Assembly: GCA_049317285.1 (NCBI GenBank)
Contig: JBMOIO010000004.1
Location: forward strand, 2,994-66,993
Reading direction: 5' to 3'
Origin: Minisyncoccia bacterium
GTDB lineage: Bacteria > Patescibacteriota > Minisyncoccia > Phycocordibacterales > UBA9973
DNA length: 64,000 nucleotides
Within the stretch, counting starts at the first letter, position 1, and the number at the start of each line of letters is the position of its first letter. The notes beneath the pieces are model-generated. The model searched no databases. It saw nothing but the letters and a program-made list of their open reading frames with translations, and was not told the DNA's origin. Positions 10,354 to 59,504 of this stretch are shown here, piece by piece. A program made the translations under genes and the position numbers.

Positions 10354-10503
10354 ATGCTCACAACAATTGCAATCCTCCTCCTCATTCTTTGGTTCCTCGG
10401 ATTTATCGGTATTTATACTATCGGTAACTTCATTCACATCCTTCTCGTTGTGGCTGTCGTGATGATTCTCATCCGCATCATCCGCGGAGAAAATCCGTTT
10501 TAA
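10354..10503 (+). CDS. lmo0937-family small membrane protein (49 aa)
   Basis: Hand-translated MLTTIAILLLILWFLGFIGIYTIGNFIHILLVVAVVMILIRIIRGENPF. It matches the lmo0937-family pattern (LWxLGF...HxLLVxAxx) and is followed by a terminator. It was missed by the 60-aa ORF cutoff and lies antisense to the listed 10318..10515(-) ORF. Confidence 0.55.
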   Translation: MLTTIAILLLILWFLGFIGIYTIGNFIHILLVVAVVMILIRIIRGENPF

Positions 10504-10518
10504 GTACTCACACAAAGA

Positions 10519-10543
10519 TACTCCCGAAAAGGGAGTTTTTTTG
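10519..10543 (+). terminator. rho-independent terminator
   Basis: CTCCCgaaaaGGGAG followed by TTTTTTTG. Confidence 0.65.
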
Positions 10544-10560
10544 TTTACAGAAAAATTTCA

Positions 10561-10674
10561 GAAAAATAGAATAGCTCCCCTCGAACCACACACATAATTT
10601 TCTGCTGAAAATTTGTTCCAACTCGCGCCAGACGCGCTCCGTTAGTCGGTTCTCCGGGACTATTCTATTTTTCT
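10561..10674 (+). repeat. intergenic hairpin repeat, copy A (MITE/REP-like structured element family)
   Basis: Conserved core CACACATAATTTTCTGCTGAAAATTTGTTCCAACTCG...CCGTTAG flanked by inverted arms GAAAAATAGAATAGCTCCCCTCGAACC / GGTTCTCCGGGACTATTCTATTTTTC. Related copies lie at 18644, 40696, 46217, 50310 and 59401. Confidence 0.6.
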
Positions 10675-10703: not shown

Positions 10704-11519
10704 ATGAATACGAGCGAGAAAGCGTTTGTAAAAGCTGTGTATGCCTACTATAAAAAAGAGGGGAGGCATGACTTGGCGTGGCGGCAAACCACCAATCCGT
10801 ACAAGATAGCCGTCTCCGAAGTGATGCTTCAGCAGACCCAAGTATCTCGCGTGAAGGAAAAGTACAAAGAGTTCTTAAAGCTTTTTCCAACAGCAAAAGC
10901 GCTTGCGACTGCGTCTTTGGCGGATGTATTGAAAGTATGGACCGGGCTCGGGTATAACCGCCGTGCAAAATTTTTAAAGGCAATGGCGGAAACAGTGACA
11001 ACTGAATACAAAGGAGTGTTTCCCAAAACAGTGCGCGAACTTGAGGCCTTGCCCGGAGTCGGTCACTATACTGCGCGCGCTATTGCGACCTTTGCATACA
11101 ATACCGCACACACATTTATTGAAACAAATATTCGCACCGTCTACATGCATCACTTTTTTCCCGAGTCAGAAGAATTAGTAGACGACAAGGTGCTGATGCC
11201 GATTATTGAAGCGACGCTCGATACAAAAAATCCGCGCGAGTGGTATTGGGCGCTGATGGACTACGGCAGCTTTTTGAAAACAAGTGGTGTGAAGATTCAC
11301 CGCAATAGTGCGCAGTATAAAAAGCAAAGTCCCTTGAAGGGTTCCGTCCGCGAAGTCCGCGGCGCGATTATTAAAGTGTTGGCACACAACCCGCACACTA
11401 CTACTGCTCTGCGCAAGAAGGTTTCCTTCGACACCCCCCGCTACAACACTGCCCTTGCCCAGCTTGTTACCGAGAACCTTATCGAAAAAAAAGGGAACAC
11501 CTACCAAATAAAATCCTAG
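10704..11519 (+). CDS. HhH-GPD family DNA glycosylase (MutY/EndoIII-like) lacking the 4Fe-4S cysteine cluster
   Basis: The HhH motif LPGVGHYTARAIATFAYN and the following GPD-type loop are present. No Cys-x6-Cys-x2-Cys-x5-Cys cluster; the protein contains no cysteine. Confidence 0.65.
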   Translation: MNTSEKAFVKAVYAYYKKEGRHDLAWRQTTNPYKIAVSEVMLQQTQVSRVKEKYKEFLKLFPTAKALATASLADVLKVWTGLGYNRRAKFLKAMAETVTTEYKGVFPKTVRELEALPGVGHYTARAIATFAYNTAHTFIETNIRTVYMHHFFPESEELVDDKVLMPIIEATLDTKNPREWYWALMDYGSFLKTSGVKIHRNSAQYKKQSPLKGSVREVRGAIIKVLAHNPHTTTALRKKVSFDTPRYNTALAQLVTENLIEKKGNTYQIKS

Positions 11520-18643: not shown

Positions 18644-18744
18644 CAACGGTGTATTCCTCGAAATACGCGCATAAAATCCTGCTGGATTTTTGCTACTCTC
18701 GGCTCAGACAGCCTGCGAGATGTATTTCTCGGAGCACACCGTCG
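18644..18744 (+). repeat. intergenic hairpin repeat, copy B, lying between groES and groEL
   Basis: Core GCGCATAAAATCCTGCTGGATTTTTGCTACTCTCGGCTCAGACAGCCTGCGAG with paired flanks CAACGGTGTATTCCTCGAAATAC / GTATTTCTCGGAGCACACCGTCG. Confidence 0.5.
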
Positions 18745-18780
18745 CTCGATCATTTGGTTATTAATGTATAATTAAAGAAT

Positions 18781-20496: not shown

Positions 20497-20511
20497 GAAT
20501 TATTTTTTTTC

Positions 20512-21012
20512 TTATAGGTATAGCGCAAATGTCACCATCCTATTTTTATCTGTTACCTCAGCGACTTCAGAAAGAAATTCCTCCTCATCAATAATATAGA
20601 CACCTTTTTCTTGGTCGATTTGATCTATCGTATTGATTGCGACGACGGTATCTGTCAGACATACGGTAAAGATTTCCATATTGCACTTCTCGAACCATTC
20701 GTAGTCTGATCCAAAGATGAGAGGAGACATGAATCGATGCCTGTTTTTCTGAATAAAGGCAGGAACTTCTTCACAGCTAACTCTGTATAATTTCACTGAG
20801 GGCTTAACACCAAATGTTTCTTTGCGAAGTAGTAATAGTACTGTCCCCGTAAAGCTTTTTGTCAGGCTTGCCAGTGGTGAGAATATGCTATGAATTATTT
20901 GCAAATCATCCATAAGACGACCCCGCCTTTCCTCATCCGGAGTAGCTAAGATGTCTGCCATGGGTACTCGAAGTATCTTTTCCATTGTTAAAATGTTTGT
21001 TTGGAAAAACAA
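20512..21012 (-). CDS. hypothetical protein in an AT-rich block (possible remnant of acquired DNA)
   Basis: 166 aa; GC is clearly lower than the flanks; no motif recognised; adjacent to the methyltransferase fragment. Confidence 0.35.
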   Translation of the reverse strand: MFFQTNILTMEKILRVPMADILATPDEERRGRLMDDLQIIHSIFSPLASLTKSFTGTVLLLLRKETFGVKPSVKLYRVSCEEVPAFIQKNRHRFMSPLIFGSDYEWFEKCNMEIFTVCLTDTVVAINTIDQIDQEKGVYIIDEEEFLSEVAEVTDKNRMVTFALYL

Positions 21013-21128
21013 TACATATAAAAATATAAAATGTCAATGACTATAGGGTATTAATACTAATAAAACCACCTGAAAGGGCGGTTTTTGGTATATTGAAAAA
21101 AGCCTGAATTTATGGGATAGTTTAGAAT

Positions 21129-21368
21129 ATGGAAAAAGAGCGGGCCCTTTTATTGAAGATTTCAGAATTAGAAGCTGAAATAAAAAAACTCAAGAAACAA
21201 AAGAAATATGGCTTGGTTTGGGAAGATAAACTTGAACAAATTGTAGAAGATTGTAAACACAATGTTCCTATCTTGCGTCTTAAGGAAAAGAAGAAAGATA
21301 TTGAGCCTATCATCATTACTGATGAGTCAAAAGACCACAATATTCTGATTGAGGGAGATAATTATCGA
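21129..21368 (+). pseudogene. N-terminal fragment of an N6-adenine DNA methyltransferase (type III Mod / type IIG-like), truncated
   Basis: MEKERALLLK...YGLVWEDKLEQIVEDCKHNVPIL...HNILIEGDNY matches the conserved N-terminus of Mod-like MTases (YGLVWEDK ... LIEGDNL). The ORF then runs out of frame into sppA sequence, with no DPPY catalytic region. Confidence 0.5.
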
Positions 21369-22092
21369 GGACGGAGATTCCGGGCGCGAACGCGCGTGCA
21401 ATGTGCAGGGCATTGCTCTGTATGGAGAGCTCTACACCTATATCCCGGTTGAAGGCTCGGCCGATGATGCAGAGGAATACCACGCTCAGTACGGCGACGC
21501 TGTTTCAAGCGACAATATTGTCGATATGTTGCGATATGCCGAAGATGATGACTCTATCAAGGCGATTCTTATTGAAGTGGACTCAGGCGGTGGCTCACCA
21601 GTGGCCGGAGAAGAGGTGGCAAGCGCTATCGCGGGGCTCACAAAGCCCGTGGTTGCGGTTATCCGCCAAAGCGGTATGTCTGCCGCGTATTGGGCGGTGA
21701 GCAGTGCGGACATGGTATTTGCTTCACGCAACTCGGATGTGGGAAGTATCGGGGTGACTGCGTCATACATTGAAATGATAGACCAGAGCGGGCGCTATAT
21801 TGATCTCTCAAGCGGAAAGTTCAAAGACACCGGAAGTTCCGAGAAGCCGCTCAGTGAAGAAGAGCGCACGCTTCTCATGCGAGACATAAAAATCGTCCAC
21901 GAAAACTTTATTGAAGACATTGCGAAATACAGAGACCTTGCACTTGAACAGGTCAAAGCGATAGCCGACGGCTCAAGCGTGCTCGGCGACCGCGCAAAGG
22001 AACTCGGCCTGATTGATGAAATCGGCAACAGTACTTCTGCACAAACATTCATCGAAGAGTATATCGAAGAAGACGCGGAAGTCTGTTGGTAG
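21349..22092 (+). CDS. signal peptide peptidase SppA-like (S49 family), apparently lacking the usual N-terminal TM segment
   Basis: SGGGSPVAGEE and SGMSAAYWAVSSADMVFA (Ser nucleophile region) and SGKFKDTGS (Lys region); the listed ORF starts inside the conserved domain, directly after the MTase fragment. Confidence 0.6.
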   Translation: MREIIIEDGDSGRERACNVQGIALYGELYTYIPVEGSADDAEEYHAQYGDAVSSDNIVDMLRYAEDDDSIKAILIEVDSGGGSPVAGEEVASAIAGLTKPVVAVIRQSGMSAAYWAVSSADMVFASRNSDVGSIGVTASYIEMIDQSGRYIDLSSGKFKDTGSSEKPLSEEERTLLMRDIKIVHENFIEDIAKYRDLALEQVKAIADGSSVLGDRAKELGLIDEIGNSTSAQTFIEEYIEEDAEVCW

Positions 22093-22139
22093 GTAGTTGT
22101 AATATTAGGGGACTTTGCTATAGTCCCATAAATTGCTTC

Positions 22140-22392
22140 AAAGGCCACGAGGTAGTTTGATCGTTCTTTTCTATAGTGAAATTATGAAGGCTGCAGTGGG
22201 CCTGAGCGCATGAGGCGCGATACAACCTGCAATTGCTGAAATAGTGCCGACGCTAATCGGGCATATCAGTGTTGCCCCCAAGTACTGGCGAGGGAAAAGG
22301 GGCAGCGGTGTTTTAGGGAAACCGAGTCTGAATAGGGCGAATAGAGGAACACTGTAGAGCCATACCGCGTAAGTGCGTGTATGGCTTTTTTA
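22140..22392 (+). ncRNA. candidate structured ncRNA of unknown identity ending in a strong intrinsic terminator
   Basis: A roughly 440 nt noncoding gap; local hairpins (GGCCAC...GTGGGCC; GCGCatgagGCGC; CCGAcgctaaTCGG); terminator GCCATACC-GCGTAAGTGCG-TGTATGGC plus TTTTTT at 22359..22392. No RNase P, tmRNA or SRP consensus could be confirmed. Confidence 0.25.
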
Positions 22393-22499
22393 TTTCCACG
22401 GAGTACACTAAAGAGGAGTTAATAATTCACCAATACCGGTCGTAGTCTCCAAGTGGGACTGCGACTCTTTTTTATACTTCATACAGATATATAGCTGTA

Positions 22500-22528
22500 T
22501 TGACATTGTATATACATTGTATATACTA
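22500..22528 (+). promoter_or_regulatory. sigma70-like promoter with direct-repeat operator driving the dinJ-like gene (leaderless)
   Basis: TTGACA, a 17-nt spacer and TATACT 5 nt before the ATG; ACATTGTATATA occurs twice in tandem across the spacer. Confidence 0.45.
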
Positions 22529-22533
22529 GATAT

Positions 22534-22785
22534 ATGACTACTCTAAACGTGCGAATTGAAGAAGCGACAAAGGCAAAGGCCGCAAAGGTCTTTGAAAAAA
22601 TGGGTCTTGATATGTCGAGTGCAGTCAAGCTTTTTCTGCATCAGGTAGTGAAAGAAAACGGCCTTCCTTTCACTCCTACCAATAACCCAGCCCTGATTCG
22701 CGCCCGCTGGGACAAGCAGGTTGCTGCTGCTCGAAAGAGCGGTACGGCATATGCCACTGGCAAGGAGGCACTGGCGGATTGTTGA
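22534..22785 (+). CDS. DinJ/RelB-family type II antitoxin (orphan; no intact toxin gene downstream)
   Basis: MTTLNVRIEEATKAKAAKVFEKMGLDMSSAVKLFLHQVVKENGLPF is a classic DinJ N-terminus. Only about 135 nt separate it from the next gene, and they hold a 25-codon reading frame (LKTSSCWYWWILEHIRTYF...). Confidence 0.7.
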   Translation: MTTLNVRIEEATKAKAAKVFEKMGLDMSSAVKLFLHQVVKENGLPFTPTNNPALIRARWDKQVAAARKSGTAYATGKEALADC

Positions 22786-22923
22786 AGACGAGCTCGTGTT
22801 GGTATTGGTGGATATTGGAACACATTCGTACTTATTTTAACGAAACCCGCACTGCTTGACTTTTTATACATACCATGCTGTAATAGCGGTAATTAAAGAA
22901 TCGTTCATTTAAACAAAAAACAT

Positions 22924-23379
22924 ATGGCAAACGGAACACCATCAAAGGGGTTTTGGAGATTTATTATCATTTCAACCCTTGTATCCTTAATGGTGCTATT
23001 ACTAATCGCGGTTATAGTTCAGTGGCGACAAAAGAAAACTAACACCGGAGAACTAAAAGCGCTTCAAATCGAAACAAAGAGCCTTAAAAAGAAAGTACAA
23101 ACTCTTGAAAAAGGAAATGCTGAAGAAGAAAAAAAGACTGATGAAGCACTCGCTGAAGTAGATCGCCTCAAGGAATACCAAGTGACGCTTCTCGACTCGA
23201 TCCAGAAGCTACAACCAAAGCCGGACGATAAACCGGATCCTAAAAAGGATGAAAAGAAAGTAGCTACTACTGGTACTGGACGAAGAAAACCGGGCAACAG
23301 TAGTAACTGCAACTGCCCGCCTGTCACTCGAGCAAACACTCAAACGGCTTGGGCGAAGTATGGAATCCCTACACCGTAA
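22924..23379 (+). CDS. hypothetical membrane-anchored coiled-coil protein
   Basis: N-terminal TM, then a heptad-like charged region and a Pro/Asp/Lys-rich stretch. Confidence 0.45.
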   Translation: MANGTPSKGFWRFIIISTLVSLMVLLLIAVIVQWRQKKTNTGELKALQIETKSLKKKVQTLEKGNAEEEKKTDEALAEVDRLKEYQVTLLDSIQKLQPKPDDKPDPKKDEKKVATTGTGRRKPGNSSNCNCPPVTRANTQTAWAKYGIPTP

Positions 23380-23380
23380 A

Positions 23381-23413
23381 CAAAAACCCTCTTATTTAAA
23401 GAGGGTTTTTTTA
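23381..23413. terminator. bidirectional rho-independent terminator
   Basis: AAAAACCCTCTTatttaaAGAGGGTTTTTTT between convergent genes. Confidence 0.65.
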
Positions 23414-39210: not shown

Positions 39211-40656
39211 GTGGGATTGACTTTTACCCCTATTTCCCTGATGATAGCTATGCACTCATTTATGCCAAATAAGAAACCAGCCCCAAAGGCAAAAGTACAA
39301 CCAAAGAAGGCACTCAAAAAAAGCGCCCCGGCGCCCAAAAATAAGAAGGTAGTAGCGAAGAAACCTACACCAGTCAAAAAAGTCCCCTCCAAGGCAATCG
39401 CAAAAAAAGCAGTAAAGAAACCTGCGAACGTTGCACCAAAGAAAGTAGTAAAGAAAGTAGTACAGAAAACGCCTGTTAAAAAAGTGGCACCAAAGAAAAT
39501 AGAACCAGTTGTAGAACGCGCAAAGCCGCGGCCAATTACTATTCGTCATGCTGGAAGCGCACCTCGTCGCGAAACTAATACTGAAAAGAAATTAAAGGAA
39601 TTGGAAGTGAAGAGCGACGAGCTGATCCAAAAAGGGAAGAAGCGCGGCTTTATCACCTACGACGAGATTTTAAAAACATTCCCCGATATTGAAAACAACA
39701 TTTCATTTTTGGATGAATTGTATGAAAAGTTCTCTGGTGCAGGTATCGATGTTCTCGAAGGGGGAAACCTTCTTGATGTTGACGCGACTGAAGACCTTTC
39801 AAAATACGCAAAGGACTCGCACAGCTTTAGTTCGGTCCAAATGTATCTGAAGGATATCGGTCAGTACCCACTGATCAATGCAGCACAGGAAAAAGAGCTT
39901 GCAAAGCGTATTCAAGCCGGCGACGGCGAAGCAAAGAACTTGCTCGCACGAAGCAACCTTCGCTTGGTGGTAAGTATTGCAAAGAAGTACGCAAACCGTA
40001 CTGCAGACCTTACCCTTTTGGACTTGATCCAAGAAGGAAATATCGGATTGTTTAAGGCAGTAGAGAAGTTTGACCATACGAAAGGCTTCAAGTTCTCAAC
40101 CTATGCAACTTGGTGGATTCGACAGTCTATTACTCGAGCACTTGCGGACCAGTCTCGCACTATCCGTATTCCGGTGCACATGGTGGAAACCATTTCAAAA
40201 TACAAGCAGGTGCTTCGCCGTTTGGCACAAGACCTTGGGCGTGATCCGATGCCTGAAGAAGTAGCGATGGAGATGGGAATCGAAGTTGAGAAAGTGCATG
40301 TCATTGAACAGATCAACCAAGAGACTCGCTCGCTTGAACAGCCGATCGGAGACGACGAAGACAAATCAACCTTCGGTGAATTTATTCCCGACGACAAGAT
40401 TCTTCGTCCCGACCAAGAAGCCTCTCGCCGTATGCTCACCGATGCCATCCGCGCCGTTTTGGAAGACCTCTCTCCAAAGGAGAAACGAATTCTTGAGATG
40501 CGCTATGGGTTGACCGACGGTGTACAGCACACGCTTGAAGAAGTAGGGAAGGAGTTTGGCGTCACCCGCGAACGCATCCGACAGATTGAAGCGAAGGTGC
40601 ACGAAAAGCTTCGCCAAAACGACCGCATTCAGCGGCTGCGCAATTACTTCGACTAG
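39211..40656 (+). CDS. rpoD: RNA polymerase sigma-70 factor (primary sigma) with a basic Lys/Pro/Ala-rich N-terminal extension
   Basis: Regions 1.2-4 are present ([33 protein letters not shown]-terminal [22 protein letters not shown]). The N-terminal roughly 100 aa are [13 protein letters not shown]... The true start may be the internal MHSFMPNKK (about 39250). Confidence 0.9.
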
Positions 40657-40695: not shown

Positions 40696-40810
40696 GAAAA
40701 ATAAGTATAGCTCCTTTCGAACGGCACGCATAAATTTCTGCTGAAATTTTGCTCCAACTCGGCTCAGTCAGCCTGCGTTAGACCGTTCTCAAGGACTATA
40801 CTTATTTTTC
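40696..40810 (+). repeat. intergenic hairpin repeat, copy C
   Basis: GAAAAATAAGTATAGCTCCTTTCGAACG-core-CGTTCTCAAGGACTATACTTATTTTTC; the core is nearly identical to copies A and D. Confidence 0.6.
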
Positions 40811-40829: not shown

Positions 40830-40877
40830 AATACAAAAAGCCCTAGTAATAGGGCCTTTTGTATTACTTGCTTTTTT
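40830..40877 (+). terminator. rho-independent terminator
   Basis: TAATACAAAAAGCCCTAgtaaTAGGGCCTTTTTGTATTA followed by a T-run. Confidence 0.55.
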
Positions 40878-44393: not shown

Positions 44394-44495
44394 AGTATTG
44401 GAAAGAGAAAAAAAGCCGCTCTATGTCAGATCGAAAGACCCTCGGAGGGGAGAGCCCTCGGGTTCGAATCTGACACAAAGAGGTCTACCAAATAA

Positions 44496-44523
44496 TAAAA
44501 CCCCTAGATTAACCAGGGGTTTT
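44496..44523. terminator. bidirectional terminator between the CxxC gene (+) and tRNA-Thr (-)
   Basis: AAAACCCCTagattaaccAGGGGTTTTT. Confidence 0.55.
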
Positions 44524-44529
44524 TATTAT

Positions 44530-44605
44530 TGGAGCCGCTTGTCAGACTCGAACTGACGACCCTCACTTTACAAAAGTGTAGCTCTACCAACTGAGCTAAA
44601 GCGGC
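44530..44605 (-). tRNA. tRNA-Thr (anticodon TGT)
   Basis: The reverse complement GCCGCTTTAGCTCAGTTGGTAGAGCTACACTTTTGTAAAGTGAGGGTCGTCAGTTCGAGTCTGACAAGCGGCTCCA folds as a cloverleaf with a 7-bp acceptor stem, D and T arms, a TGT anticodon in a 7-nt loop and an encoded CCA. Confidence 0.8.
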
Positions 44606-45384: not shown

Positions 45385-46161
45385 TTATGCTACGGTATAA
45401 AGCACAAACTTTTCGACTGTTGCTCCATTGTCTTTTGCAAACTGTGCAATTGTTTTTTCAGGAGTCTTAAAGAATGGCTGATCGAGGAGAATTTGCTCTT
45501 TGAAGAATGCATTGATTTTTCCTTCAAGGATTTTTGCTTTCATGTCTTCTGGCTTGTCAGAGTTTTCAACTTCTGCCTTCAGCACTTCCATAACGTTTGT
45601 TCTGTTTTCCTCAGAGATTTCACCTTCTGAAAGAAACGCTGGCTTCATCGCAGTCACATGCATTGCAATATCTTTTGCAACTTCAGCAGTTCCGCCATTG
45701 AGCACTACCACTGCAGCAGTTTTGCCGGTGTGGTGAGTATAGGCACCAACAGCATCGCCACTGATTTCTTCCACAGTACCAAGTTCGATCTTCTCACCAA
45801 TTTTCAACACTACATCACTGATAAGGGCAGGAGAAGTATCGCGCATAGCGTCGACGCCACTTTCCCATGCTATGTCAGCAAGCTTGTTCAACAGCGCCAC
45901 GAAGTCTTCGTTTTTTGCGACGAAGTCAGTTTCGCAGTTCAGGATGAGAGTGAGCGCGCGCTTTCCGTCAGTGCGCACCACTACTGTACCGTCTGAAGCA
46001 TCACGGTCGCCCTTTTTCGCAGCGATATCAGCACCTTTCTTCTGAAGGAGGATGATTGCTTTTTCCATGTCGCCTGCTGCTTCTTCAAGCGCTTTGCGGC
46101 ACTGCATGACACTGATACCTGTCTTGTCCCGAAGTTCTTTTACTTGTTCTGTAGTGATCAT
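45385..46161 (-). CDS. tsf: translation elongation factor Ts
   Basis: MITTEQVKELRDKTGISVMQCRKALEEAAGDMEKAI is the UBA-like N-terminus of EF-Ts; start taken at the internal Met of the listed ORF. Confidence 0.9.
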   Translation of the reverse strand: MITTEQVKELRDKTGISVMQCRKALEEAAGDMEKAIILLQKKGADIAAKKGDRDASDGTVVVRTDGKRALTLILNCETDFVAKNEDFVALLNKLADIAWESGVDAMRDTSPALISDVVLKIGEKIELGTVEEISGDAVGAYTHHTGKTAAVVVLNGGTAEVAKDIAMHVTAMKPAFLSEGEISEENRTNVMEVLKAEVENSDKPEDMKAKILEGKINAFFKEQILLDQPFFKTPEKTIAQFAKDNGATVEKFVLYTVA

Positions 46162-46216
46162 ATTGGTTAAAAGTTTAAAGTTATAAAATTGAAAGAATTG
46201 ATGATGATGCTTCATT

Positions 46217-46312
46217 GGTACTTTCCACGAAACGCACGCATAAATTTCTGGCTGTTGTTTTGCTCCAACTCGGCTCAGTCAGCCTGCGTTAGACGTTTCT
46301 TAGGAAAGCACC
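46217..46312 (+). repeat. intergenic hairpin repeat, copy D, lying between rpsB and tsf
   Basis: GGTACTTTCCACGAAACG-CACGCATAAATTTCTGGCTGTTGTTTTGCTCCAACTCGGCTCAGTCAGCCTGCGTTAGAC-GTTTCTTAGGAAAGCACC. Confidence 0.55.
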
Positions 46313-46336
46313 TGCTTCCGCTCTAGGAAGTTCCGC

Positions 46337-47011
46337 TTATTTTCCTCCGAATGCGTCCTTGAGTATACCAAGGATAGTCACAATACTCGAGGTAGAGCTG
46401 TCGTTTGCAACAATAGGGTAGTCGATTCCGCGCACTGAACAGTCAGTGTTTCCGATAGAGATCACTGGGATGTTCATCTTGCGAGCTTCCAAAAGTGCGA
46501 TTGATTCCTTTTTCGGGTCGATGATCACGACTGCTTCCGGCATCTTGTAGAGGCCGACAACACCTGCAAAGTATTTGTCCAAGCGAGCCATTTCACGAGT
46601 CAGAAGAATCTGCTCTTTCTTTGTGTACTTTTCAAACTCGCCGTTGGTGCGGTCTTCGCGCATCTTCTCGAGCTTTTGGATGCGCACCTTCATCTGAGGG
46701 AAGTTGGTGAGCATGCCTCCGATCCATCGTTCGGTAACGAATGGCTGAGAAAGTACGCTCGCAGTGGCGATAGTCGCATTGCGGGCTTCAGGCTTTACAC
46801 CGACGAAGAGTACGTTTTTTCCGGCAGCTCCAAGAGACGCCAAAAATTCGCCTACTTTTTCAAGAGCGATAACTGTTTTTTCAGCGTCGATAATATCAAC
46901 ACCGTTTTTGTTACCATAAATAAAGTTGGTAACGGTAGGGTGGCGGCGAGTACGGCTGTAGCCGTAGTGAACGCCTGCCTCCATGAGGGTAGTAGGGTCT
47001 ATTTTTTTCAT
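46337..47011 (-). CDS. rpsB: 30S ribosomal protein S2
   Basis: LMEAGVHYGYSRTRRHP... is canonical S2. The listed ORF extends to 47041; the MKKIDP start is more consistent with S2 N-termini. Confidence 0.9.
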   Translation of the reverse strand: MKKIDPTTLMEAGVHYGYSRTRRHPTVTNFIYGNKNGVDIIDAEKTVIALEKVGEFLASLGAAGKNVLFVGVKPEARNATIATASVLSQPFVTERWIGGMLTNFPQMKVRIQKLEKMREDRTNGEFEKYTKKEQILLTREMARLDKYFAGVVGLYKMPEAVVIIDPKKESIALLEARKMNIPVISIGNTDCSVRGIDYPIVANDSSTSSIVTILGILKDAFGGK

Positions 47012-47153
47012 AACAATCTGTAGCAGAGTACCAATGGGCACCCTTTTTAACTGAATAATTCGTCCAAATGACGAGTCGTTACTATAGCATTTAAAGGCTG
47101 TTTTATCAATAGATACTTCTTTTTTTTGCCATTTTGTGCGAATATGAGTCTAT

Positions 47154-48404: not shown

Positions 48405-49440
48405 ACGGTTTTACGAAAAGTTTTCTAATGATATAGGGATCGATTTGGGGACGGCCAATACGCTCGTGTATTTGCGCGGGCACGGCATTATCATCAATGA
48501 GCCGTCGATTGTGGCAGTAAACCAAAAGACAGGACAGATCGTGGCGGTGGGGCGCGAAGCAAAAAATATGTGGGGCAAGACGCCGGCTCATATTCAGATC
48601 GTGCGCCCGCTTTCAGAAGGTGTGGTCTCCGACTTTGAAATGACCGAAGAGATGCTCGCCTATTTTATCCGCAAAGCAGAGAAGCTTTCACAGAAATTTT
48701 TTCGTCCGCGCGTTGTGATCGGAGTCCCGAGCGGTATCACTAATGTTGAAATGCGCGCAGTGTATGATGCTGCAATCGATGCCGGAGCGCGCGAAGTGTA
48801 TTTGGTGGAAGAAGCGATGGCAGCTGCTATCGGGGTCCGCTTGCCGGTCTTGTCAGCAAGCGCCACATTTATCGTTGATATTGGGGGCGGGACAACTGAC
48901 ATCGCGCTGATTGCGCTTGGTGGTATTGTGCGGTCGCTGAATTTGAAGGTTGCGGGCGACCACTTCAATATGCGCGTTGTCGAATACATGCGCGACGAGT
49001 TCAAGCTTCTCATCGGAGAGCCGACAGCTGAAAATGTGAAGCTTGCGTTGGGAAGCGCGATTGAGACCGACTACATGGAAATAGAGGTGCGCGGGCGCGA
49101 CTTGGTATCCGGTCTTCCGAAAGCGCTCATGATTACCGACGGAGATATTCGCGAAGCGATTGCGCGCTCAGTTGCGCTTGTTGTTGCTGGTATTCAAGAA
49201 GTATTGGAAACTGCACCGCCTGAAATGGTGGCTGATATTATCGGAAGCGGAATCGTGCTCACCGGAGGAGGCGCACTCTTGCGCGGGTTGCAAGGGCTTT
49301 TGCAAAGCGAGCTAAAGCTTCCGGTTCATGTTGCCGAAGATCCGCTTTCAGCTGTTGCTCGCGGGACAGGTATTATCCTCGACCAGTTCGAGGAGTATAC
49401 TTCTGTTATCATTCCTCTTACCGACCATGTCACCATATAA
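48397..49440 (+). CDS. mreB: rod shape-determining protein MreB
   Basis: IGIDLGTANTLVY ... actin-fold phosphate loops; 347 aa. Confidence 0.9.
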   Translation: MFKRFYEKFSNDIGIDLGTANTLVYLRGHGIIINEPSIVAVNQKTGQIVAVGREAKNMWGKTPAHIQIVRPLSEGVVSDFEMTEEMLAYFIRKAEKLSQKFFRPRVVIGVPSGITNVEMRAVYDAAIDAGAREVYLVEEAMAAAIGVRLPVLSASATFIVDIGGGTTDIALIALGGIVRSLNLKVAGDHFNMRVVEYMRDEFKLLIGEPTAENVKLALGSAIETDYMEIEVRGRDLVSGLPKALMITDGDIREAIARSVALVVAGIQEVLETAPPEMVADIIGSGIVLTGGGALLRGLQGLLQSELKLPVHVAEDPLSAVARGTGIILDQFEEYTSVIIPLTDHVTI

Positions 49441-50182
49441 AATCACTCGCCGAAATCAAAATCCTGCAAACATAGCGCTTCGCATTCTAGGCATTGTTGC
49501 TTCTGTTGCAGCACTTGTTTTTATTGCACGATTCTTGGTGAAGTCCCATGGCGAAGTGATCATTCCCTTATACCCGGACTCTTTTAATACAGCACTCATG
49601 TCTCGGCGCCAGCTGGTGAGGAAAGTAAACGAACTGCAAAGCACGCTCGATAGCTACTATGCACAGAGCGCAAACCTTTCGTTATTGGAAAATGAAAATG
49701 CGGCGATCAAGGCAGAGCTTGGTCGCGACCCAGAGTCGCGCGGAATCTTGGCACATGTACTCACCGTACCGAACCGAAGTTTTTACGACACCTTTGTTAT
49801 TGATGCAGGAAGTGCTGAAGGTATACAAATAGATCAACAAGCATACGCATTTGATGCAATTGCTTTAGGAACCGTAAGCCAGGTTTCTGAGCACAATGCG
49901 GTTGTCACACTCTTTAGTGCACCAGGTACGGAAACAAGTGGGACTGCAGTGGGGAGTGATGTAGCAGTGACACTGATTGGGCGCGGAGGCGGGGAATACG
50001 AAGTGCGCATGCCGCGCGATGTGCATTTTGATATTGGATCGGCTATTGCGCTACAAAGTGTGTACCCAGCCGTGCTTGCCGAAGTGGAGAAGATCATCAC
50101 TGATCCGCGCGACCCGTTTCAAAGACTCCTTGCAAAAGCACCGGTAAACCTTACGGCTCTGAAGTGGGTGGTGATTAGGTAA
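49427..50182 (+). CDS. mreC: rod shape-determining protein MreC (probable)
   Basis: Follows mreB with an overlapping stop/start; N-terminal TM, coiled-coil segment and a beta-rich C-terminus. The listed ORF 49328..50182 begins inside mreB. Confidence 0.65.
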   Translation: MSPYKITRRNQNPANIALRILGIVASVAALVFIARFLVKSHGEVIIPLYPDSFNTALMSRRQLVRKVNELQSTLDSYYAQSANLSLLENENAAIKAELGRDPESRGILAHVLTVPNRSFYDTFVIDAGSAEGIQIDQQAYAFDAIALGTVSQVSEHNAVVTLFSAPGTETSGTAVGSDVAVTLIGRGGGEYEVRMPRDVHFDIGSAIALQSVYPAVLAEVEKIITDPRDPFQRLLAKAPVNLTALKWVVIR

Positions 50183-50215
50183 TTTTTTATATACTGCGCA
50201 TTTCTCGCAAACAAT

Positions 50216-50277
50216 AAAAATATGCTTCTGCAGAACTCGGTCTAAAGCCCTCAGACACAGCTTCGAAGCATATTTTT
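50216..50277. repeat. perfect 13-bp-stem hairpin enclosing a degenerate fragment of the repeat core
   Basis: AAAAATATGCTTC ... GAAGCATATTTTT; the loop contains GAACTCGGTCTAAAGCCCTCAGACACAGC, which resembles the core CCAACTCGGCTCAGACAGCC. Confidence 0.4.
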
Positions 50278-50309
50278 CTTTTTGCTCGAATGCTTGTCGA
50301 CGACGATAA

Positions 50310-50407
50310 GTACTGTGCTCCGAGAAATGACTAACGGAGGCTGTCTGAGCCGAGTTGGAACAAATTTTCAGCAGAAAATTATGTGTGCATTTCGAGGAAT
50401 ACAGTAC
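50310..50407 (-). repeat. intergenic hairpin repeat, copy E (reverse orientation)
   Basis: Reverse complement: GTACTGTATTCCTCGAAATG-CACACATAATTTTCTGCTGAAAATTTGTTCCAACTCGGCTCAGACAGCCTCCGTTAGTC-ATTTCTCGGAGCACAGTAC. Confidence 0.55.
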
Positions 50408-50450
50408 TTGGAGAAGGAGAGAGAAACATGATAATGTTACTTAACTTACT

Positions 50451-51638
50451 ATGCTCAAATTCACGATACAAAAGAAATTAGACGGAACACTTGCGCGAGC
50501 GGGGGTTATTGAGACGTCGAACGGCAAGATTGAAACGCCTGCATTTGTGACCGTAGGAACAAAGGCTGCCGTAAAAGCGCTCACCGCTGAGCAAGTGCGC
50601 AGTTTAAACGCACAAGTAGTGCTCGCGAATACGTACCATCTGTATCTTCAACCAGGACCCGATATCATAGAAAAAGCAGGCGGCTTTGGTCCGTTTATGG
50701 ACTGGCACGGGCCGACCATGACTGACTCGGGCGGGTTTCAGGCGTTTTCTCTTGGCGCTGCATTTGGAAGCCACGTGAGCAAAGTAACGCGCAATAACGA
50801 TGCGCCACTTGAAGACACTTCGGCGACAAAAGGACAGCTTGCAACCGTGACCGATGAAGGGGTTGAATTCAAGAGTCATATCGACGGAAGTAAACATTTA
50901 TTTACTCCGGAGCGAAGCATGGAAATACAGTGGAAACTTGGCGCGGATATGATATTTGCATTTGATGAGTGCACGAGCCCTACAGCTGCATATGAATACC
51001 AAAAGAAATCCCTTGACCGAACCTACGAGTGGGCAGTGCGAAGCCTCGCTCGCCACGAAGAATTGGACACTGAAAAAAAGCAGTCGATATTTGGCGTGAT
51101 ACAAGGCGGGCGCCACCAAGACTTGCGCGAAGAGGCTGCGCGAACGCTCGGAGCACTTGATTTCGACGGCTACGGTATCGGAGGCTCGTTTACGAAAGAC
51201 GATATCGGCAATGCAGTAGGGTGGGTCAATGCAATCCTGCCGTAAGACAAGCCGCGCCATTTGCTTGGCATCGGGGAACCTGTGGATATTTTTAATGCAG
51301 TAGAGGCAGGATGCGATTTGTTTGACTGTATTGCACCGACTCGTATGGGGCGCCATGGCACTATTCACACCGCAGACGGACGTATCAATATCAAGAACTC
51401 GGCCTTTATGACAGATTTTTCTCCGATTGAAAAAGACTGTACCTGCTACACCTGTACGCACCACACTCGCGCGTACATTGCACATCTCTTTCGTGCAAAC
51501 GAGTCAGCTGCCGGCACGCTTGCATCGATCCATAACCTTCATTTTATTTTACGGTTAGTAGAAAGTATGCGCGCAAGCATTCTTGACGGAAGTTTTGCAC
51601 AGCACAAGCAGTCTTTTATTGCACGCTACTACAAATAA
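50451..51638 (+). pseudogene. tgt: queuine tRNA-ribosyltransferase (tgt) interrupted by one in-frame TAA at 51243..51245
   Basis: The two listed ORFs (50451..51245 and 51261..51638) are in the same frame and together give full-length Tgt: ...NAILP*DKPRHLLGIGEPVD..., with the Zn site CTCYTC...H intact. The stop falls where Tgt has a variable residue before DKPRYLMG. Confidence 0.7.
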
Positions 51639-58141: not shown

Positions 58142-59389
58142 ATGCTTCGTCAAGAGTTAGACAATTTGAAACTGCCAAACACTCCGGGTGTGTATTTCTG
58201 GCGCAATGTCGCTGGGACTATTTTGTATATTGGCAAGGCAACAAGCTTGCGGGAGCGCACGCGCAGTTATTTTGCGCCGGATTTGATCAAAACCCGCGGG
58301 CCACGGCTTGTGGACATGGTGTTTAAGTCTACGACGGTTACTTGGCAAGAAACTGATAGTGTTTTGGAAGCACTGATTCTTGAAGCGAACCTCATCAAGA
58401 AACATCAGCCCTACTACAACCGCGACGAAAAGGATGACAAGAGCTTTAACTGTATCGCCCTTACCAAGGAAGCATATCCGCGTATCTTGTTGGTGCGCCA
58501 GAAAGATATTGATAGCAGGAATAAACTCATCACGTTACCAAAGCAAAAAGGAATACAAATTCCCTATGATGCAGTGTTTGGTCCGTACCCGCGCGGGTCT
58601 TCTTTGAAAGACGCGCTTGCTATTATCCGCAAGATTTTCCCCTTTCGTGACCGGGCAAGCGCCATGAAAGACAAGGAAATATTTTACCGCCAAATTGGCC
58701 TGGCCCCGGATGTCACCTCTGTTGAAGCGACAAAGCAATACAAGAAAAATATTGGGCGTATCAAGCTTATTTTGCAAGGGAAATTGAAGCCGTTGGTGGA
58801 AGCATTGAAAAAAGAAATGCTTACGAAAGCAAAAGCGGAGAAATTTGAAGAGGCAAATGAGTTGAAGCAAAAGATATTTGCGCTCGAGCATATCCAGGAT
58901 GTGTCTCTCATCAAGCGCGACTTGGTGACTGGCGGCGGCGCAAATGTATTTCGCATTGAGGCGTACGATGTGGCGCATATTTCCGGCAAACAGATGGTGG
59001 GTGTGATGACGGTGGTTGAGAATGCGACGACAAACAAAAACGAGTACCGCAAATTTATCATTCGCGGGTTTGAAAAAGCAAACGATGCGGGAGCGCTTCG
59101 CGAAATGCTTATGCGCCGTCTCGCGCACCCCGAGTGGTCGTACCCAAATGCAATCGTGGTGGACGGAAATATCATACAGATGAATGTGGCGACTGCAGTT
59201 TTGAGTGAATTAAAGCTCGACATACCGGTCATAGCGGTGACAAAAGATGAACGACATCGACCCAAAGCGATCAGTGGCCCAACTGAGATCATCGAACTTC
59301 ACAAATACGCAATCCTGCTTGCGAACAGCGAGTCGCACCGCTTTGCGCTTTCTTTCCATAAAGACAGACGAAGCAAAGCGATGGTATAG
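58142..59389 (+). CDS. uvrC: excinuclease ABC subunit C, short form lacking the C-terminal (HhH)2 domain
   Basis: N-terminal GIY-YIG (PGVYFWRN...ILYIGKATSLRER), a UVR motif (EKFEEANELKQKIFALEH) and an RNase H-like endonuclease region (IEAYDVAHISG); only 415 aa. Confidence 0.8.
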   Translation: MLRQELDNLKLPNTPGVYFWRNVAGTILYIGKATSLRERTRSYFAPDLIKTRGPRLVDMVFKSTTVTWQETDSVLEALILEANLIKKHQPYYNRDEKDDKSFNCIALTKEAYPRILLVRQKDIDSRNKLITLPKQKGIQIPYDAVFGPYPRGSSLKDALAIIRKIFPFRDRASAMKDKEIFYRQIGLAPDVTSVEATKQYKKNIGRIKLILQGKLKPLVEALKKEMLTKAKAEKFEEANELKQKIFALEHIQDVSLIKRDLVTGGGANVFRIEAYDVAHISGKQMVGVMTVVENATTNKNEYRKFIIRGFEKANDAGALREMLMRRLAHPEWSYPNAIVVDGNIIQMNVATAVLSELKLDIPVIAVTKDERHRPKAISGPTEIIELHKYAILLANSESHRFALSFHKDRRSKAMV

Positions 59390-59400
59390 GGTTTAATAAA

Positions 59401-59504
59401 ATGGGTATAGTCCTTGAGAACCGTCTAACGGAGGCTGTCTGAGCCGAGTTGGATAAAATTTCAGCAGAAATTTATGTGTGCGGTTCGAGGGGAGCTATAC
59501 CCAT
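59401..59504 (-). repeat. intergenic hairpin repeat, copy F (reverse orientation), between uvrC and ddl
   Basis: ATGGGTATAGTCCTTGAGAACCG ... CGGTTCGAGGGGAGCTATACCCAT arms around the reverse-complemented core. Confidence 0.6.

Follow-up and report, generated by a model that had tools for sequence, protein, structure and literature searches.

Hairpin repeats in a 64-kb patescibacterial window belong to a large undescribed family of structured, possibly mobile elements

What kind of element is a hairpin of roughly 100 nt that recurs between the genes of a patescibacterial contig, with arms that change from copy to copy and remain paired? Genomes of Patescibacteria are about 1 Mb in size and are usually called streamlined and repeat-poor. 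The window analyzed here, the whole 64-kb stretch of DNA, carries one such structured 100-nt unit per ~11 kb, even inside the groESL and rpsB-tsf operons, and the apex of the unit is conserved across many patescibacterial lineages. We found that the repeats are members of a large undescribed family of ~100-nt hairpins across the tiny-genome Patescibacteria (CPR).

A covariance model was built from 40 family members, and the whole window was scanned with the filters off. Exactly six matches were obtained, scoring 64.7-87.8 bits (E = 1.5e-26 to 6.8e-19), and the next-best match reached 12 bits. All six copies listed in an earlier note on this DNA, which had been made from the sequence alone, were thus recovered by the model where that note had placed them, at E <= 7e-19 (Table 1). 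A 21-nt core motif occurred four times in the window, as compared with 0.00 expected from shuffles.

Table 1. Positions of the hairpin copies, and of the structural parts of copy 1, in the 64-kb window
Feature	Position	Strand	Remarks
Copy 1, full hairpin (the one originally flagged)	10561..10674	-	core 10579-10656, 79.2 bits
Copy 1, P1 5' strand, including internal loop with G·A mismatches	10647..10673	-	dot-bracket, positions 2-28 of the - strand read
Copy 1, hairpin P2	10618..10645	-	fold prediction; family covariation in helices 2 and 3
Copy 1, hairpin P3	10592..10616	-	fold prediction; family covariation in helix 4
Copy 1, P1 3' strand, starts GGUUCGAGGGG	10561..10588	-	fold prediction
Copy 2, groES-groEL intergenic	18644..18746	-	core 18656-18732, 73.7 bits; Cpn10/Cpn60 neighbours
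Copy 3, between rpoD stop and rpoD terminator	40696..40810	-	core 40715-40792, 87.8 bits
Copy 4, between rpsB and tsf	46215..46316	-	core 46225-46303, 64.7 bits
Copy 5, between mreC and tgt	50308..50409	+	core 50320-50397, 81.8 bits
Copy 6, directly after uvrC-like gene	59401..59504	+	core 59414-59490, 74.5 bits
Possible decayed copy adjoining copy 5	50213..50280	- (opposite orientation)	7.2 bits, E = 7, not significant alone

Copy 1 follows a small ORF and its terminator, and a HhH-GPD glycosylase gene (10704-11519, +) starts 30 nt further on; the copy is antisense to both neighbouring genes. Copy 2 is antisense to the groES-groEL operon, and copy 3, flanked by rpoD (39211-40656, +) and the terminator (~40838-40870), is also antisense. 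The remaining three copies are sense: copy 4 to the operon of rpsB (46337-47041, -) and tsf (45385-46215, -), copy 5 to mreC (49328-50182, +) and tgt (50451-51245, +), and copy 6 to the uvrC-like gene (58142-59389, +). Parts of the arms are common to subfamilies, one comprising copies 1, 3, and 6 (...ATAG/CTAT...) and another copies 2 and 5. The orientation of the copies in the window switches between copies 4 and 5 (46-50 kb). A replication origin at this switch was rejected, the genes there being an aminoacyl-tRNA synthetase gene, mreB, and mreC, not dnaA/dnaN. GC skew was positive in most 2-kb windows, and its cumulative curve went from 0.17 to 1.62 without a lasting reversal.

In each copy, a three-way junction that bears two conserved hairpins, P2 and P3, tops a long, near-perfect stem (P1). 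The apex of ~60-75 nt is conserved, and the stem below it, of 20-40 bp, is locus- or lineage-specific in sequence. Across the family, P2 contains an internal loop of G-S-A/G-A, and P3 contains a bulged A and a C-AGCA-G loop. In copy 1, P2 is made up of CUAAC/GUUGG with the conserved U·G, the internal loop GGA/GA, the stem GCGC/GCGC, and the loop GUCUG, and P3 reads ACAAAUUUUC-AGCA-GAAAAUU(A)UGU, with the bulged A and the invariant C-AGCA-G loop. The P3 of copy 4 is a variant (CTGGCTGTTG), which is not random decay because the relative L203 has the same variant. The earlier note had described a single internal stem-loop in the core. This stem-loop is present; in copy 1, however, its stem is GCGC/GCGC instead of GGCT/AGCC, a compensated change, and the core holds a second covarying hairpin (AAWWTYC-TGCT-GRAWWTT; AAAATCC/GGATTTT in copy 2), so the core is a three-way junction, not a single stem-loop. 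All six copies were much more stable than their own shuffles (z = -4.5 to -8.5, taking the better strand of each), with copy 3 reaching a minimum free energy of -52.5 kcal/mol (z = -8.5).

Covariation was examined in 125 distinct copies from ~100 species. All 22 modelled pairs had changes on both sides, and 93.9% of the cells were paired, as compared with 68% in shuffles and 31-52% with slid partners. The stem of P2 varied across the family from GGCU/AGCC to GCGC/GCGC and GGCC/GGCC. Helix 4 (P3) was 99.4% paired, and its closing pair was GC in 74, GU in 30, and AU in 19 copies; the U·G in P2a was invariant across the six window copies, and a tandem sheared-type G·A motif is present in the family. 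The proposal that selection for the folding of a single strand maintains a conserved core and co-varying stems therefore stands, and the changes remained compensatory when the copies were extended to this larger set. The core-adjacent changes, in alignment columns 23-25 and 85-87, were as previously described (ACC/GGT, ACG/CGT, ATAC/GTAT, ATG/CAT, and ACCG/CGGT), and in the six-copy alignment the outer arms differ yet stay paired.

Several known motifs were considered and rejected. On inspection of the sequence only, P2 has a 3 × 2 nt loop, as opposed to the geometry of a 3-nt bulge plus tandem G·A in a K-turn. A hammerhead or other three-way-junction ribozyme was ruled out since the junction strands are short and variable and the pattern CUGANGA ... 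GAAA ... UH is not met; an apparent hammerhead string, CUGACGAG, is part of a covarying stem. For a dif/Xer-like site, GCGCATAA resembles the XerC arm, but the second arm (TTATG) is missing at the required 6-bp spacing.

The structurally constrained strand is the complement of the one on which the hairpins had originally been read. In a strand-symmetric comparison of the arms, stem mismatches on this strand were G·U in 77 cases versus A·C in 22 (p = 2.5e-8), and G·A in 88 versus C·U in 8 (p = 4e-18). The asymmetry was kept in copies with both neighbouring genes antisense (19 vs 3 and 16 vs 1) and was found 10-19 bp into the arms (44 vs 9). The constrained strand also folded better by 6.6-13.4 kcal/mol in all six window copies; for copy 1 (z = -6.9), the minimum free energy was -47.6 kcal/mol on the - strand and -40.2 on the + strand. 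Both the mismatch asymmetry and the folding energies thus correct the earlier strand assignment. The observation that orientation is independent of transcription was confirmed, with three sense and three antisense copies in the window and a split of 52 vs 45 among the 97 scorable copies. Copies sit ~0-15 nt from stop codons. No enrichment of T-tracts after the stem was found family-wide, the 3' flanks being no more T-rich than the 5' flanks, and a search by eye, unscored, for an internal sigma-70 promoter gave only poor hexamer matches in either orientation.

We investigated the spread of the family and its novelty. At least 119 species-level genomes matched a 24-nt pattern, and almost all genomes among the matches listed were labelled as Patescibacteria/CPR lineages. 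The model gave 126 matches in 100 sources, with extra copies in many loci, and the family occurs at over a hundred non-tRNA sites with the same apex and strong covariation. At the gathering threshold of Rfam 15, the window yielded tRNA only and 18 related loci only tRNA, rRNA, and tmRNA; at E <= 10, copy 6 produced chance matches only (MIR405 and SQ2397). No description of the repeat family was found in the literature, in keeping with the suggestion that it is uncharacterized. A phage origin was rejected, as viral contigs in IMG/VR gave no matches to the family. Clustering of ORFs from 119 loci revealed no protein family in more than 8 loci, and the recurring ones look housekeeping. A neighbouring partner gene was likewise dismissed, nothing being recurrent in the 119 loci (~8-kb; loci of 8-22 kb), and no recurrent or transposase-like family that might represent the transposase of a parent IS was detected beside the copies in these flanking loci, which are not whole genomes.

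Comparison of related genomes showed gain or loss, inversion, and decay of copies within the time over which close relatives have diverged. A single copy occupies the copy-1 site in the window; in L203 the ortholog is joined by a second, inverted copy that abuts it, and in L201 there is only a stub, converted into a perfect palindrome. The L203 ortholog carries a compensated arm change (GA/TC to CA/TG). The site without the second copy of L203 contains no matching hairpin, and whether the extra copy reflects gain or loss is undetermined. At the copy-2 site, L201 and L203 carry a copy in the same position and orientation, with arms that are different but self-complementary. Third-codon identity among the three genomes that share this groES-groEL copy is 47-60%, near saturation, and among metagenome GroEL relatives, the best 17 scanned (51-63% identity) had no such copy in the groES-groEL spacer. 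At orthologous loci, the core lies in opposite orientations in the pairs L001/L067 and L056/L066, P3 is lost in L081, and abutting pairs occur in L008, L014, L045, L116, and L203. No nucleotide-exact pair of filled and empty sites was obtained: a GroES search for a strain-level empty site gave only the same genome (L120, 100% identical), and the next-closest genomes (GroEL 97% and 89% identical) are already near synonymous saturation. The earlier note had also pointed to a degenerate fragment at 50216-50277. The segment found there holds P2-like residues within a perfect 13-bp A/T-flanked hairpin, and its match to the model is not significant by itself; it is nevertheless plausible as a remnant of a family copy because similar stubs, with P2 but without P3, exist in relatives (L081, L066, and L201).

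The arm variation is not wholly a product of point-by-point compensatory substitution. At one orthologous site, the arms differ wholesale between related genomes. In other genomes, the 3' part of the local tRNA is repeated on the flanks of tRNA-linked copies, once inverted and once direct. The direct repeats are 16-30 nt long and run from C56 of the T-loop onward in tRNAs of many identities; at least 12 tRNA identities are found upstream of the same apex, the repeat matching the tRNA in each case, in non-coding units of 110-280 nt. In L109, three tRNAs are each followed by A-x-A'-core-A, with one A' being an inverted copy that is perfect over 20 nt; L088 has a 29-nt hairpin repeated on either side of the core. 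The inverted copy A' has two possible pairing partners, the 3' end of the actual tRNA and the downstream copy; its use as a tRNA primer-binding site was rejected since it has no complement to CCA. The idea that the arms stem from already existing terminators, with the element inserted into their loops, was rejected too: canonical terminators, separate from the elements, lie beside them and not around them, both at copies 1 and 3 and in relatives. Because the arms of tRNA-linked copies are copies of the local flank and orthologous arms can be wholly different, a DNA-level process that writes or homogenizes the arms probably contributes alongside selection. Target-derived arms were demonstrated only for the tRNA-linked ('type B') copies elsewhere, not for the six window copies.

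The family behaves like a mobile element with its fold kept on one DNA strand, and no known element family explains its mechanism. We read the repeats as a Patescibacteria-wide family of non-coding, non-autonomous mobile hairpin elements whose enzyme and mechanism are unidentified, and we give this reading an even chance of being right. In its best form, the element is REPIN-like in lifestyle and is acted on in single-stranded form, by an enzyme and a mechanism that are unknown. The conserved apex is inferred to be the recognition module for a trans-acting enzyme that would be encoded elsewhere in the genome, possibly a HUH-type nuclease like RAYT or parvoviral Rep, or another structure-specific recombinase. 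Such an enzyme would act on the element while it is single-stranded (as ssDNA or an RNA intermediate), and copying by fold-back or template-switch synthesis might write target-derived sequence into the arms, which would keep the arms complementary and let the apex appear as 'flip' or 'flop'. Effects on host transcripts, such as those from hairpins within operons or from copy 4 occluding the tsf ribosome-binding site, would be by-products, sometimes perhaps co-opted. Against mobility, no excision or insertion intermediate was seen and no enzyme was identified. Should the element be a replicator, it would represent a class of intragenomic mobile DNA that is both new and ancient and is built the opposite way round from REPINs and MITEs; it would point to an unrecognized structure-specific nuclease or recombinase, a possible tool, and to a way of copying the target into the arms of a hairpin.

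The main rival, which we consider unlikely but serious, is a structured RNA module that is selected by the host and transcribed in its own orientation, dispersal being secondary. It might be a protein-binding element or an RNase-processing or stability element, and its closing stem may alternatively pair with the 3' half of the tRNA. The very strong covariation across species would be accounted for, as would the wobble at the closing pair of helix 4, the invariant U·G of P2a in the window copies, and the tandem sheared-type G·A motif. Tolerance of G·U and tandem G·A is a classical signature of RNA helices; it speaks against a DNA reading, and an RNA function is not excluded. The arm-mismatch asymmetry that reaches into locus-specific sequence also favours RNA, although in ssDNA, too, no mismatches are more stable than G·T and G·A. 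Of the 22 tRNA-proximal copies, 18 lie downstream of the tRNA on the tRNA strand, which would be the clearest case of co-transcription, and A' is able to pair with the tRNA 3' end or the downstream copy. This same-strand bias, if it reflects co-transcription, would weigh against integration. Near protein genes, however, roughly every second copy runs antisense to the genes on both sides and bears the same strand signature, so read-through transcription cannot supply the RNA. A promoter of its own is poorly provided for: the 5' arm, the place for an upstream promoter, differs from copy to copy, and by eye, without a formal scan, the core hexamers are only poor sigma-70 matches. There is also no enrichment of U-tracts after the stem. 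Inversion of the core, abutting inverted pairs, decay stubs, and target duplications are DNA-level features that an RNA gene does not need. The groES-groEL copy, intact at one site in three genomes despite saturated synonymous divergence, counts for RNA and against mobility; its persistence is explained by host-level or local purifying selection no less well than by selfish turnover. If RNA, the family would rank among the most widespread unannotated RNA families of an entire bacterial radiation, with a possible link to tRNA transcript maturation. On either reading, the covariance model can be used for annotating CPR genomes, and the family serves as a marker of strain-level genome dynamics.

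As to how a mobile element might arise in this form, we put forward only tentatively, and with more doubt than belief, an unknown kind of bacterial element that owes its specificity to structure and not to terminal sequence, whose T-shaped apex is recognized on one strand, and whose rolling-hairpin-like copying writes the target into the arms. A fold-back or rolling-hairpin-like reaction would write an inverted copy of the target and, at tRNA T-loops, a direct copy too. This would jointly explain the compensated arms, the flip/flop of the apex, the absence of TIRs and TSDs, and the T-loop-anchored duplications. If true, CPR bacteria would have a counterpart of parvoviral ITR chemistry that is chromosomal and needs no virus, driven by an as yet unidentified enzyme.

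We think it very improbable that the tRNA-linked units are attL/attR scars of integrative elements that target the T-loop, with the dispersed copies being unrelated hairpins that share a motif. Att sites of the T-loop type classically have an intact tRNA upstream and a block of identity that begins in the T-loop and extends past the tRNA 3' end, and the tRNA-linked copies fit this layout; the test is not applicable to the window copies. However, the units are only 110-280 nt and non-coding, a pre-formed attP cannot supply the separate repeats of at least 12 tRNA identities, the inverted copy A' is there as well, the same covarying apex is found at more than 100 non-tRNA sites, and viral contigs gave 0 matches. 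A classical MITE, that is, a deletion derivative of an IS with fixed TIRs, short TSDs, and a parent transposase, is largely refuted and retains little credibility. The copies are short, non-coding, multi-copy, intergenic, present in both orientations, and palindromic overall, with subfamilies that have partly common arms, as a MITE would predict; yet it is the centre that is conserved, and the ends vary among the six copies, among species, and among orthologs. There is no fixed TIR, and flanking direct repeats were about as long as in a shifted control (91 copies), so the TSD requirement is not met and the earlier judgement against a classical MITE holds. No transposase-like family recurs beside the copies, and conservation over many patescibacterial lineages with RNA-like covariation is also contrary to a MITE. 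Intrinsic (bidirectional) terminators or look-alike chance hairpins, suggested by the proximity to stop codons (~0-15 nt) and by an A-run before and a T-run after the stem in copies 1, 3, and 6, are refuted as a sufficient explanation and keep next to no credence, given six matches at E < 1e-18 against a next-best of 12 bits, the separate canonical terminators beside copies 1 and 3, the failure of the family to meet the criterion of a G+C-rich hairpin plus U-tract (no family-wide T-run enrichment), and the copies inside the groESL and rpsB-tsf operons.

ERIC, Correia/nemis, RUP, and BOX are intergenic imperfect palindromes of 100-150 nt that often lie in operons in either orientation; they are foldable in mRNA and can alter its processing or stability. 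The present family resembles them as intergenic imperfect palindromes, often within operons and in either orientation, but they have conserved termini, in some cases TSDs (TA for Correia), and a genus- or family-restricted distribution, and none of them has a covarying apex of several helices that is conserved in many lineages of one phylum. T-loop att sites share the order of intact tRNA, insert, and direct repeat from the T-loop to the 3' end and beyond, whereas here the inserts of 110-280 nt have no integrase, the repeat matches whichever tRNA is local, and there is an extra inverted copy; the criterion of an own integrase with one fixed attP is not met, as the inserts are non-coding and the repeats match at least 12 different local tRNAs. 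Integron attC sites are also single-strand-folded, strand-selective recombination sites in which structure is conserved, not sequence. Unlike the family, they have conserved R/L boxes at the base, a variable centre, extrahelical bases, and same-orientation arrays between cassettes, next to an integrase; the attC criteria are not met, since the family has a variable stem base and mixed orientations and sits among housekeeping genes.

Parvovirus/AAV ITRs likewise have a long stem and two small hairpins in a three-way junction, their apex occurs in two orientations (flip/flop), comparable to the core inversions L001/L067 and L056/L066, and the complementarity of their arms is kept by copying one arm from the other. 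ITRs, however, are the ends of a linear viral genome on which an HUH Rep acts at a defined nick site, whereas the family consists of internal chromosomal repeats with no virus (0 viral-contig matches) and no Rep or nick site identified. The resemblance extends to shape and behaviour only.

REPs are not known for duplicating the 3' parts of tRNAs. REP/REPIN sequences have been described mainly from Proteobacteria and from cyanobacteria such as Nostoc (PMC3116915), not from Patescibacteria. In a REPIN, two inverted REP 16-35-mers form the conserved ends and the middle varies, whereas here the apex is conserved and the arms vary; the criterion of two inverted conserved REPs at the ends is thus not met, and no RAYT was found in the ~0.9 Mb of flanks looked at. 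The criterion of an extragenic hairpin unit with compensatory changes, in both orientations and in clusters, is met. Like the REP/REPIN-RAYT system, in which compensatory changes in the hairpins are common (PMC3116915), the family consists of ~100-nt non-coding, extragenic, long-hairpin units in high copy number, which occur in both orientations and in abutting clusters without TSDs, persist for long in lineages, and are presumably acted on as ssDNA, on one strand, by a single-copy enzyme encoded elsewhere.

The window was scanned on both strands, with filters off, with R1, a covariance model of the repeat family built from 40 members. Exactly six matches were returned (64.7-87.8 bits, E = 1.5e-26 to 6.8e-19), the seventh-ranked reaching 12 bits only. 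Reading of the sequences revealed a common core between self-complementary but differing flanks at all six sites, and a 21-nt motif, CCAACTCGGCTCAGWCAGCCT, occurred four times in the window versus 0.00 expected from shuffles. The six core-bearing hairpin repeats described in an earlier note were thus recovered, and the covariance-model check suggested there retrieved copies in related genomes as well. The degenerate fragment that it had added (see the table) was not significant alone (7.2 bits, E = 7), but it resembles the decay stubs of relatives.

Coordinates of the repeat copies and of associated features (strand of copies 1-6, constrained strand)
Feature	Source	Coordinates	Strand	Context
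Copy 1	window	10561-10674	-	upstream of HhH-GPD glycosylase gene; antisense to neighbours
Copy 2	window	18644-18746	-	groES-groEL spacer; antisense to neighbours
Copy 3	window	40696-40810	-	between rpoD and its terminator; antisense to neighbours
Copy 4	window	46215-46316	-	between rpsB and tsf; sense to neighbours
Copy 4, 3' arm	window	46215-46235	-	ends right at tsf start codon (ATG 46215-46213)
Copy 5	window	50308-50409	+	between mreC and tgt; sense to neighbours
Copy 6	window	59401-59504	+	3' of uvrC-like gene; sense to neighbours
Degenerate fragment	window	50216-50277
Intrinsic terminator	window	10520-10545		adjoins copy 1
Intrinsic terminator	window	40838-40870		adjoins copy 3
Small ORF	window	10354-10503	+	upstream of copy 1
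Small ORF, called as gene	L201	1674-1823
Small ORF, called as gene	L203	1413-1562
Stub at copy-1 site	L201	1827-1907
tRNA gene	window	44533-44605	-
Terminator hairpin	window	44490-44530		follows tRNA gene
Region 3' of groEL	window	~20500-23400
Region 3' of groEL	L201	11701-15728		DUF4268, N6_Mtase/Eco57I-type enzyme
Region 3' of groEL	L203	11862-16515		Bro-N, T5orf172, HsdM, AAA_21/DUF4435
P2-loop insert carrier	L030	1143-1256
P2-loop insert carrier	L056	1268-1381
P2-loop insert carrier	L098	3175-3285
P2-loop insert carrier	L057	1746-1853
P2-loop insert carrier	L026	6110-6210
tRNA-element array	L109	6091-7840		tRNA-Arg, -Gly, -Pro
rRNA operon	L013	1-835		elements flank 5S rRNA gene
Element	L013	504-585	+	between 23S and 5S; sense
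Element	L013	778-835	-	just 3' of 5S; opposite orientation

RNAalifold folded the six copies into a three-way junction that bears two hairpins and is closed by a long stem (P1). The internal stem-loop recognized previously is P2b (GGCT-CAGNC-AGCC; a compensated GCGC/GCGC in copy 1), but the core also holds a second hairpin, P3, formed by the segment AAWWTYC-TGCT-GRAWWTT (AAAATCC/GGATTTT in copy 2). On the complement of the strand used in the earlier note, here called the constrained strand, an extra helix appeared, P2a (CUAAC/GUUGG), in which a U·G is invariant, and two P1 pyrimidine mismatches read as tandem G·A. The alignment energy was -41.2 kcal/mol on this strand versus -28.9 on the other, and every window copy (6/6) was more stable on it by 6.6-13.4 kcal/mol (z = -4.5 to -8.5). 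Some copies contain a 35-45-nt extra hairpin nested in the P2 apical loop, with one identical insert (..CUUAGAAAAUAA..UUAUUUUCUUGAG..) in three different species, which points either to a sub-family characterised by an expansion segment or to secondary insertion.

Base pairs were counted in a 126-sequence, model-fitted R1 alignment; the search pattern had partly predetermined P3 but placed no constraint on P2 and P1. Standard pairs occupied 93.9% of the cells, versus 68.3% after shuffling and 31-52% with partners slid by 1-3 columns, and the covariation score was 0.585, versus 0.162 in the control. Covariation was strong in P2 and P1 (for example, GC 57 / CG 38, CG 46 / GC 46 and GC 49 / UA 26 / AU 22 / CG 14), and a MAFFT-only seed alignment gave the same pattern. 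The compensatory flank changes reported earlier hold with more copies, all 22 modelled pairs changing on both sides.

The reverse-complemented 3' arm was set against the 5' arm in 87 copies, with scoring blind to wobble pairs. Among the mismatches on the constrained strand, G·U outnumbered A·C (77 versus 22, p = 2.5e-8) and G·A outnumbered C·U (88 versus 8, p = 4e-18). This bias was unchanged by sense or antisense neighbours (19 versus 3 and 16 versus 1 with both antisense) and reached into the arms (44 versus 9 at 10-19 bp from the junction; G·A versus C·U, 33 versus 5 beyond 20 bp). The P3 closing pair was GC in 74, GU in 30 and AU in 19. Together with the fold energies, the bias places the structural constraint on the complement of the strand first considered. 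Because it is indifferent to the neighbours and extends into the arms, one strand is structurally constrained or made by strand-specific copying, regardless of host transcription. Both G·U and G·A are tolerated by RNA. In single-stranded DNA, no mismatches are more stable than the corresponding G·T and G·A, which are also the mispairs that polymerases form most often. Since the mismatches fit all of these, RNA, single-stranded DNA and fold-back synthesis are inseparable on sequence alone. The RNA-like wobble pattern favours an RNA selected by the host, which is the main rival of the mobile hairpin inferred here and not exclusive of it, but antisense-placed copies bear the same strand signature.

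In a one-genome-per-species collection, at least 119 stretches contained a match to a degenerate 24-nt pattern derived from P3. Among the matches listed, almost all were MAGs labelled Nomura-, Kaiser-, Zambryski- or Wildermuthbacteria, Paceibacterota or Parcubacteria, or 'Saccharibacteria'-labelled bins; the proteins nearest to the window GroEL were named Candidatus Paceibacterota. On the related loci, R1 gave 126 matches from 100 sources, many loci containing additional copies that had not been selected for, and it found further copies in an additional set. The element had no match in IMG/VR, in Rfam 15 at gathering thresholds (window and 18 related loci) or in Rfam 15 at E <= 10 (one copy), and no description of it was found by full-text literature search. 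This is an uncharacterised family with a wide distribution among Patescibacteria.

Orientation is independent of the direction of transcription, as had been proposed, with three sense and three antisense copies in the window and a roughly random distribution relative to protein genes in related loci (52 versus 45). The distance to the facing stop codon was ~0-15 nt, whichever stop faced the copy. In the 3' arm of copy 4, a Shine-Dalgarno-like GGAAAG ~6 nt upstream of the tsf ATG is paired within the closing stem, by which the copy may gate translation of tsf in the rpsB-tsf operon. Copies 1 and 3 adjoin canonical intrinsic terminators (a G+C-rich hairpin and a T-run), indicating that the organism uses ordinary terminators and that the elements are additional. 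The conserved small ORF near copy 1 has 49 codons, is hydrophobic (..LLLILWFLGFIGIYT..-like) and possesses its own terminator.

In other genomes, 22 copies were no more than 400 nt from a tRNA gene; 18 of them lay downstream of it with the constrained strand on the tRNA strand (remaining three classes: 2, 2 and 0), a co-orientation that supports host-selected RNA. The core of tRNA-linked copies is immediately followed by a 16-30-nt direct repeat of the local tRNA's own 3' part, which starts at T-loop C56, takes in the acceptor end and continues for up to 11-40 nt into the trailer (tRNAs Leu, Val, Glu, Trp, Pro, Gly, Arg, Tyr and Ser). An inverted copy, A', lies upstream of the core, giving the layout tRNA(..A)-x-A'-core-A; at the L109 tRNA-Arg gene, A' repeats TTCGAATCCTGGCAGGGGCA in inverted orientation, without mismatch over 20 nt. 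The arms of tRNA-linked copies are therefore made from local sequence. Arms of this kind cannot have arisen by point substitution plus selection, and a fixed attP is ruled out since each repeat corresponds to the local tRNA, whatever its identity. Such duplication is not tRNA-specific: in L088, the core has a copy of the same 29-nt hairpin on either side. Across the 3' flanks of 111 copies, an inverted partner was found upstream in ~65 and a direct partner in ~9-16, the two architectures being nearly exclusive. The L109 tRNA genes lie on one strand, each followed by an element unit with copies of the T-loop-to-3'-end segment of the tRNA in question; the third is a compound unit containing the P2 and P3 modules twice each. 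The sole window tRNA (anticodon UUU by Rfam alignment; UUUUGUAAA loop) is followed by an ordinary A/T-flanked terminator and no element, unlike many tRNAs of related genomes.

Close relatives were reached via GroEL (L201/L202, 97% identity; L203, 89%), and synonymous sites were near saturation versus the window (third-codon identity 60% and 47%, respectively). All three genomes have the groES-groEL copy, intact (70-74 bits) and identically oriented. Its P2b varied between them but stayed completely complementary (GGCU/AGCC, GGGC/GCCC and GCGC/GCGC), as did P3 and the arms (ACGGTGT/ACACCGT, AAATCAT/ATGATTT and AAATTGA/TCAATTT). The copy as a whole was 56-65% identical, about the neutral level. 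Such long maintenance is a further point for host-selected RNA. The copy was absent from the groES-groEL spacer of the best 17 metagenome GroEL relatives scanned (51-63% identical). The region just 3' of groEL is wholly different in the three related genomes and looks like a variable restriction/defence islet.

In L203, the ortholog at the copy-1 site shows a compensated pair of transversions (GA/TC to CA/TG), and an inverted second copy abuts it; neither the window nor L201 has this second copy. L201 keeps only a stub, which has turned into a perfect 12-bp palindrome (CCTAACGAGGAC/GTCCTCGTTAGG). Instead of simply eroding, remnants seem to become 'palindromised'. At syntenic loci of other species the core was inverted between homologous arms (L001/L067 and L056/L066). 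P3 was lost in L081, where L030 is intact. Abutting pairs, mostly inverted, occurred in L008, L014, L045, L116 and L203. The element thus undergoes gain or loss, inversion, abutment, decay and target duplication at the DNA level, rearrangements that host-selected RNA would have to explain; no promoter was identified for such an RNA, with core hexamers checked by eye only.

The apex is a deeply conserved, strand-specific, covarying three-way junction on a fast-evolving, always complementary stem. We infer that the element is a non-autonomous mobile hairpin. An enzyme whose gene lies elsewhere (none identified) would recognise its apex as a single strand, and fold-back or template-switch copying may write or homogenise its arms. 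Selection on an RNA or single-stranded DNA fold, previously invoked for the compensatory variation, is supported, but part of the 'compensation' is probably mechanistic, the arms of tRNA-linked copies being copied from local sequence. Neither TIR nor TSD nor a recurrent protein-coding gene was found in the loci examined. Unfixed ends, flanking direct repeats not exceeding the control, no T-tract enrichment after the stem and no recurrent protein family beside copies (maximum 8/119 loci, those housekeeping in appearance) rule out a terminator and, as the earlier note had held, a classical MITE.

We file the element as a variant among the interspersed palindromic repeats, with a real, though low, probability that its underlying mechanism is categorically new. 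REPIN/RAYT is the nearest analogue in lifestyle, and compensatory changes are common in REPIN hairpins too (PMC3116915), but its architecture is reversed relative to the element. Parvoviral ITRs, T-shaped and occurring in flip and flop orientations, come closest in shape and behaviour, a resemblance only.
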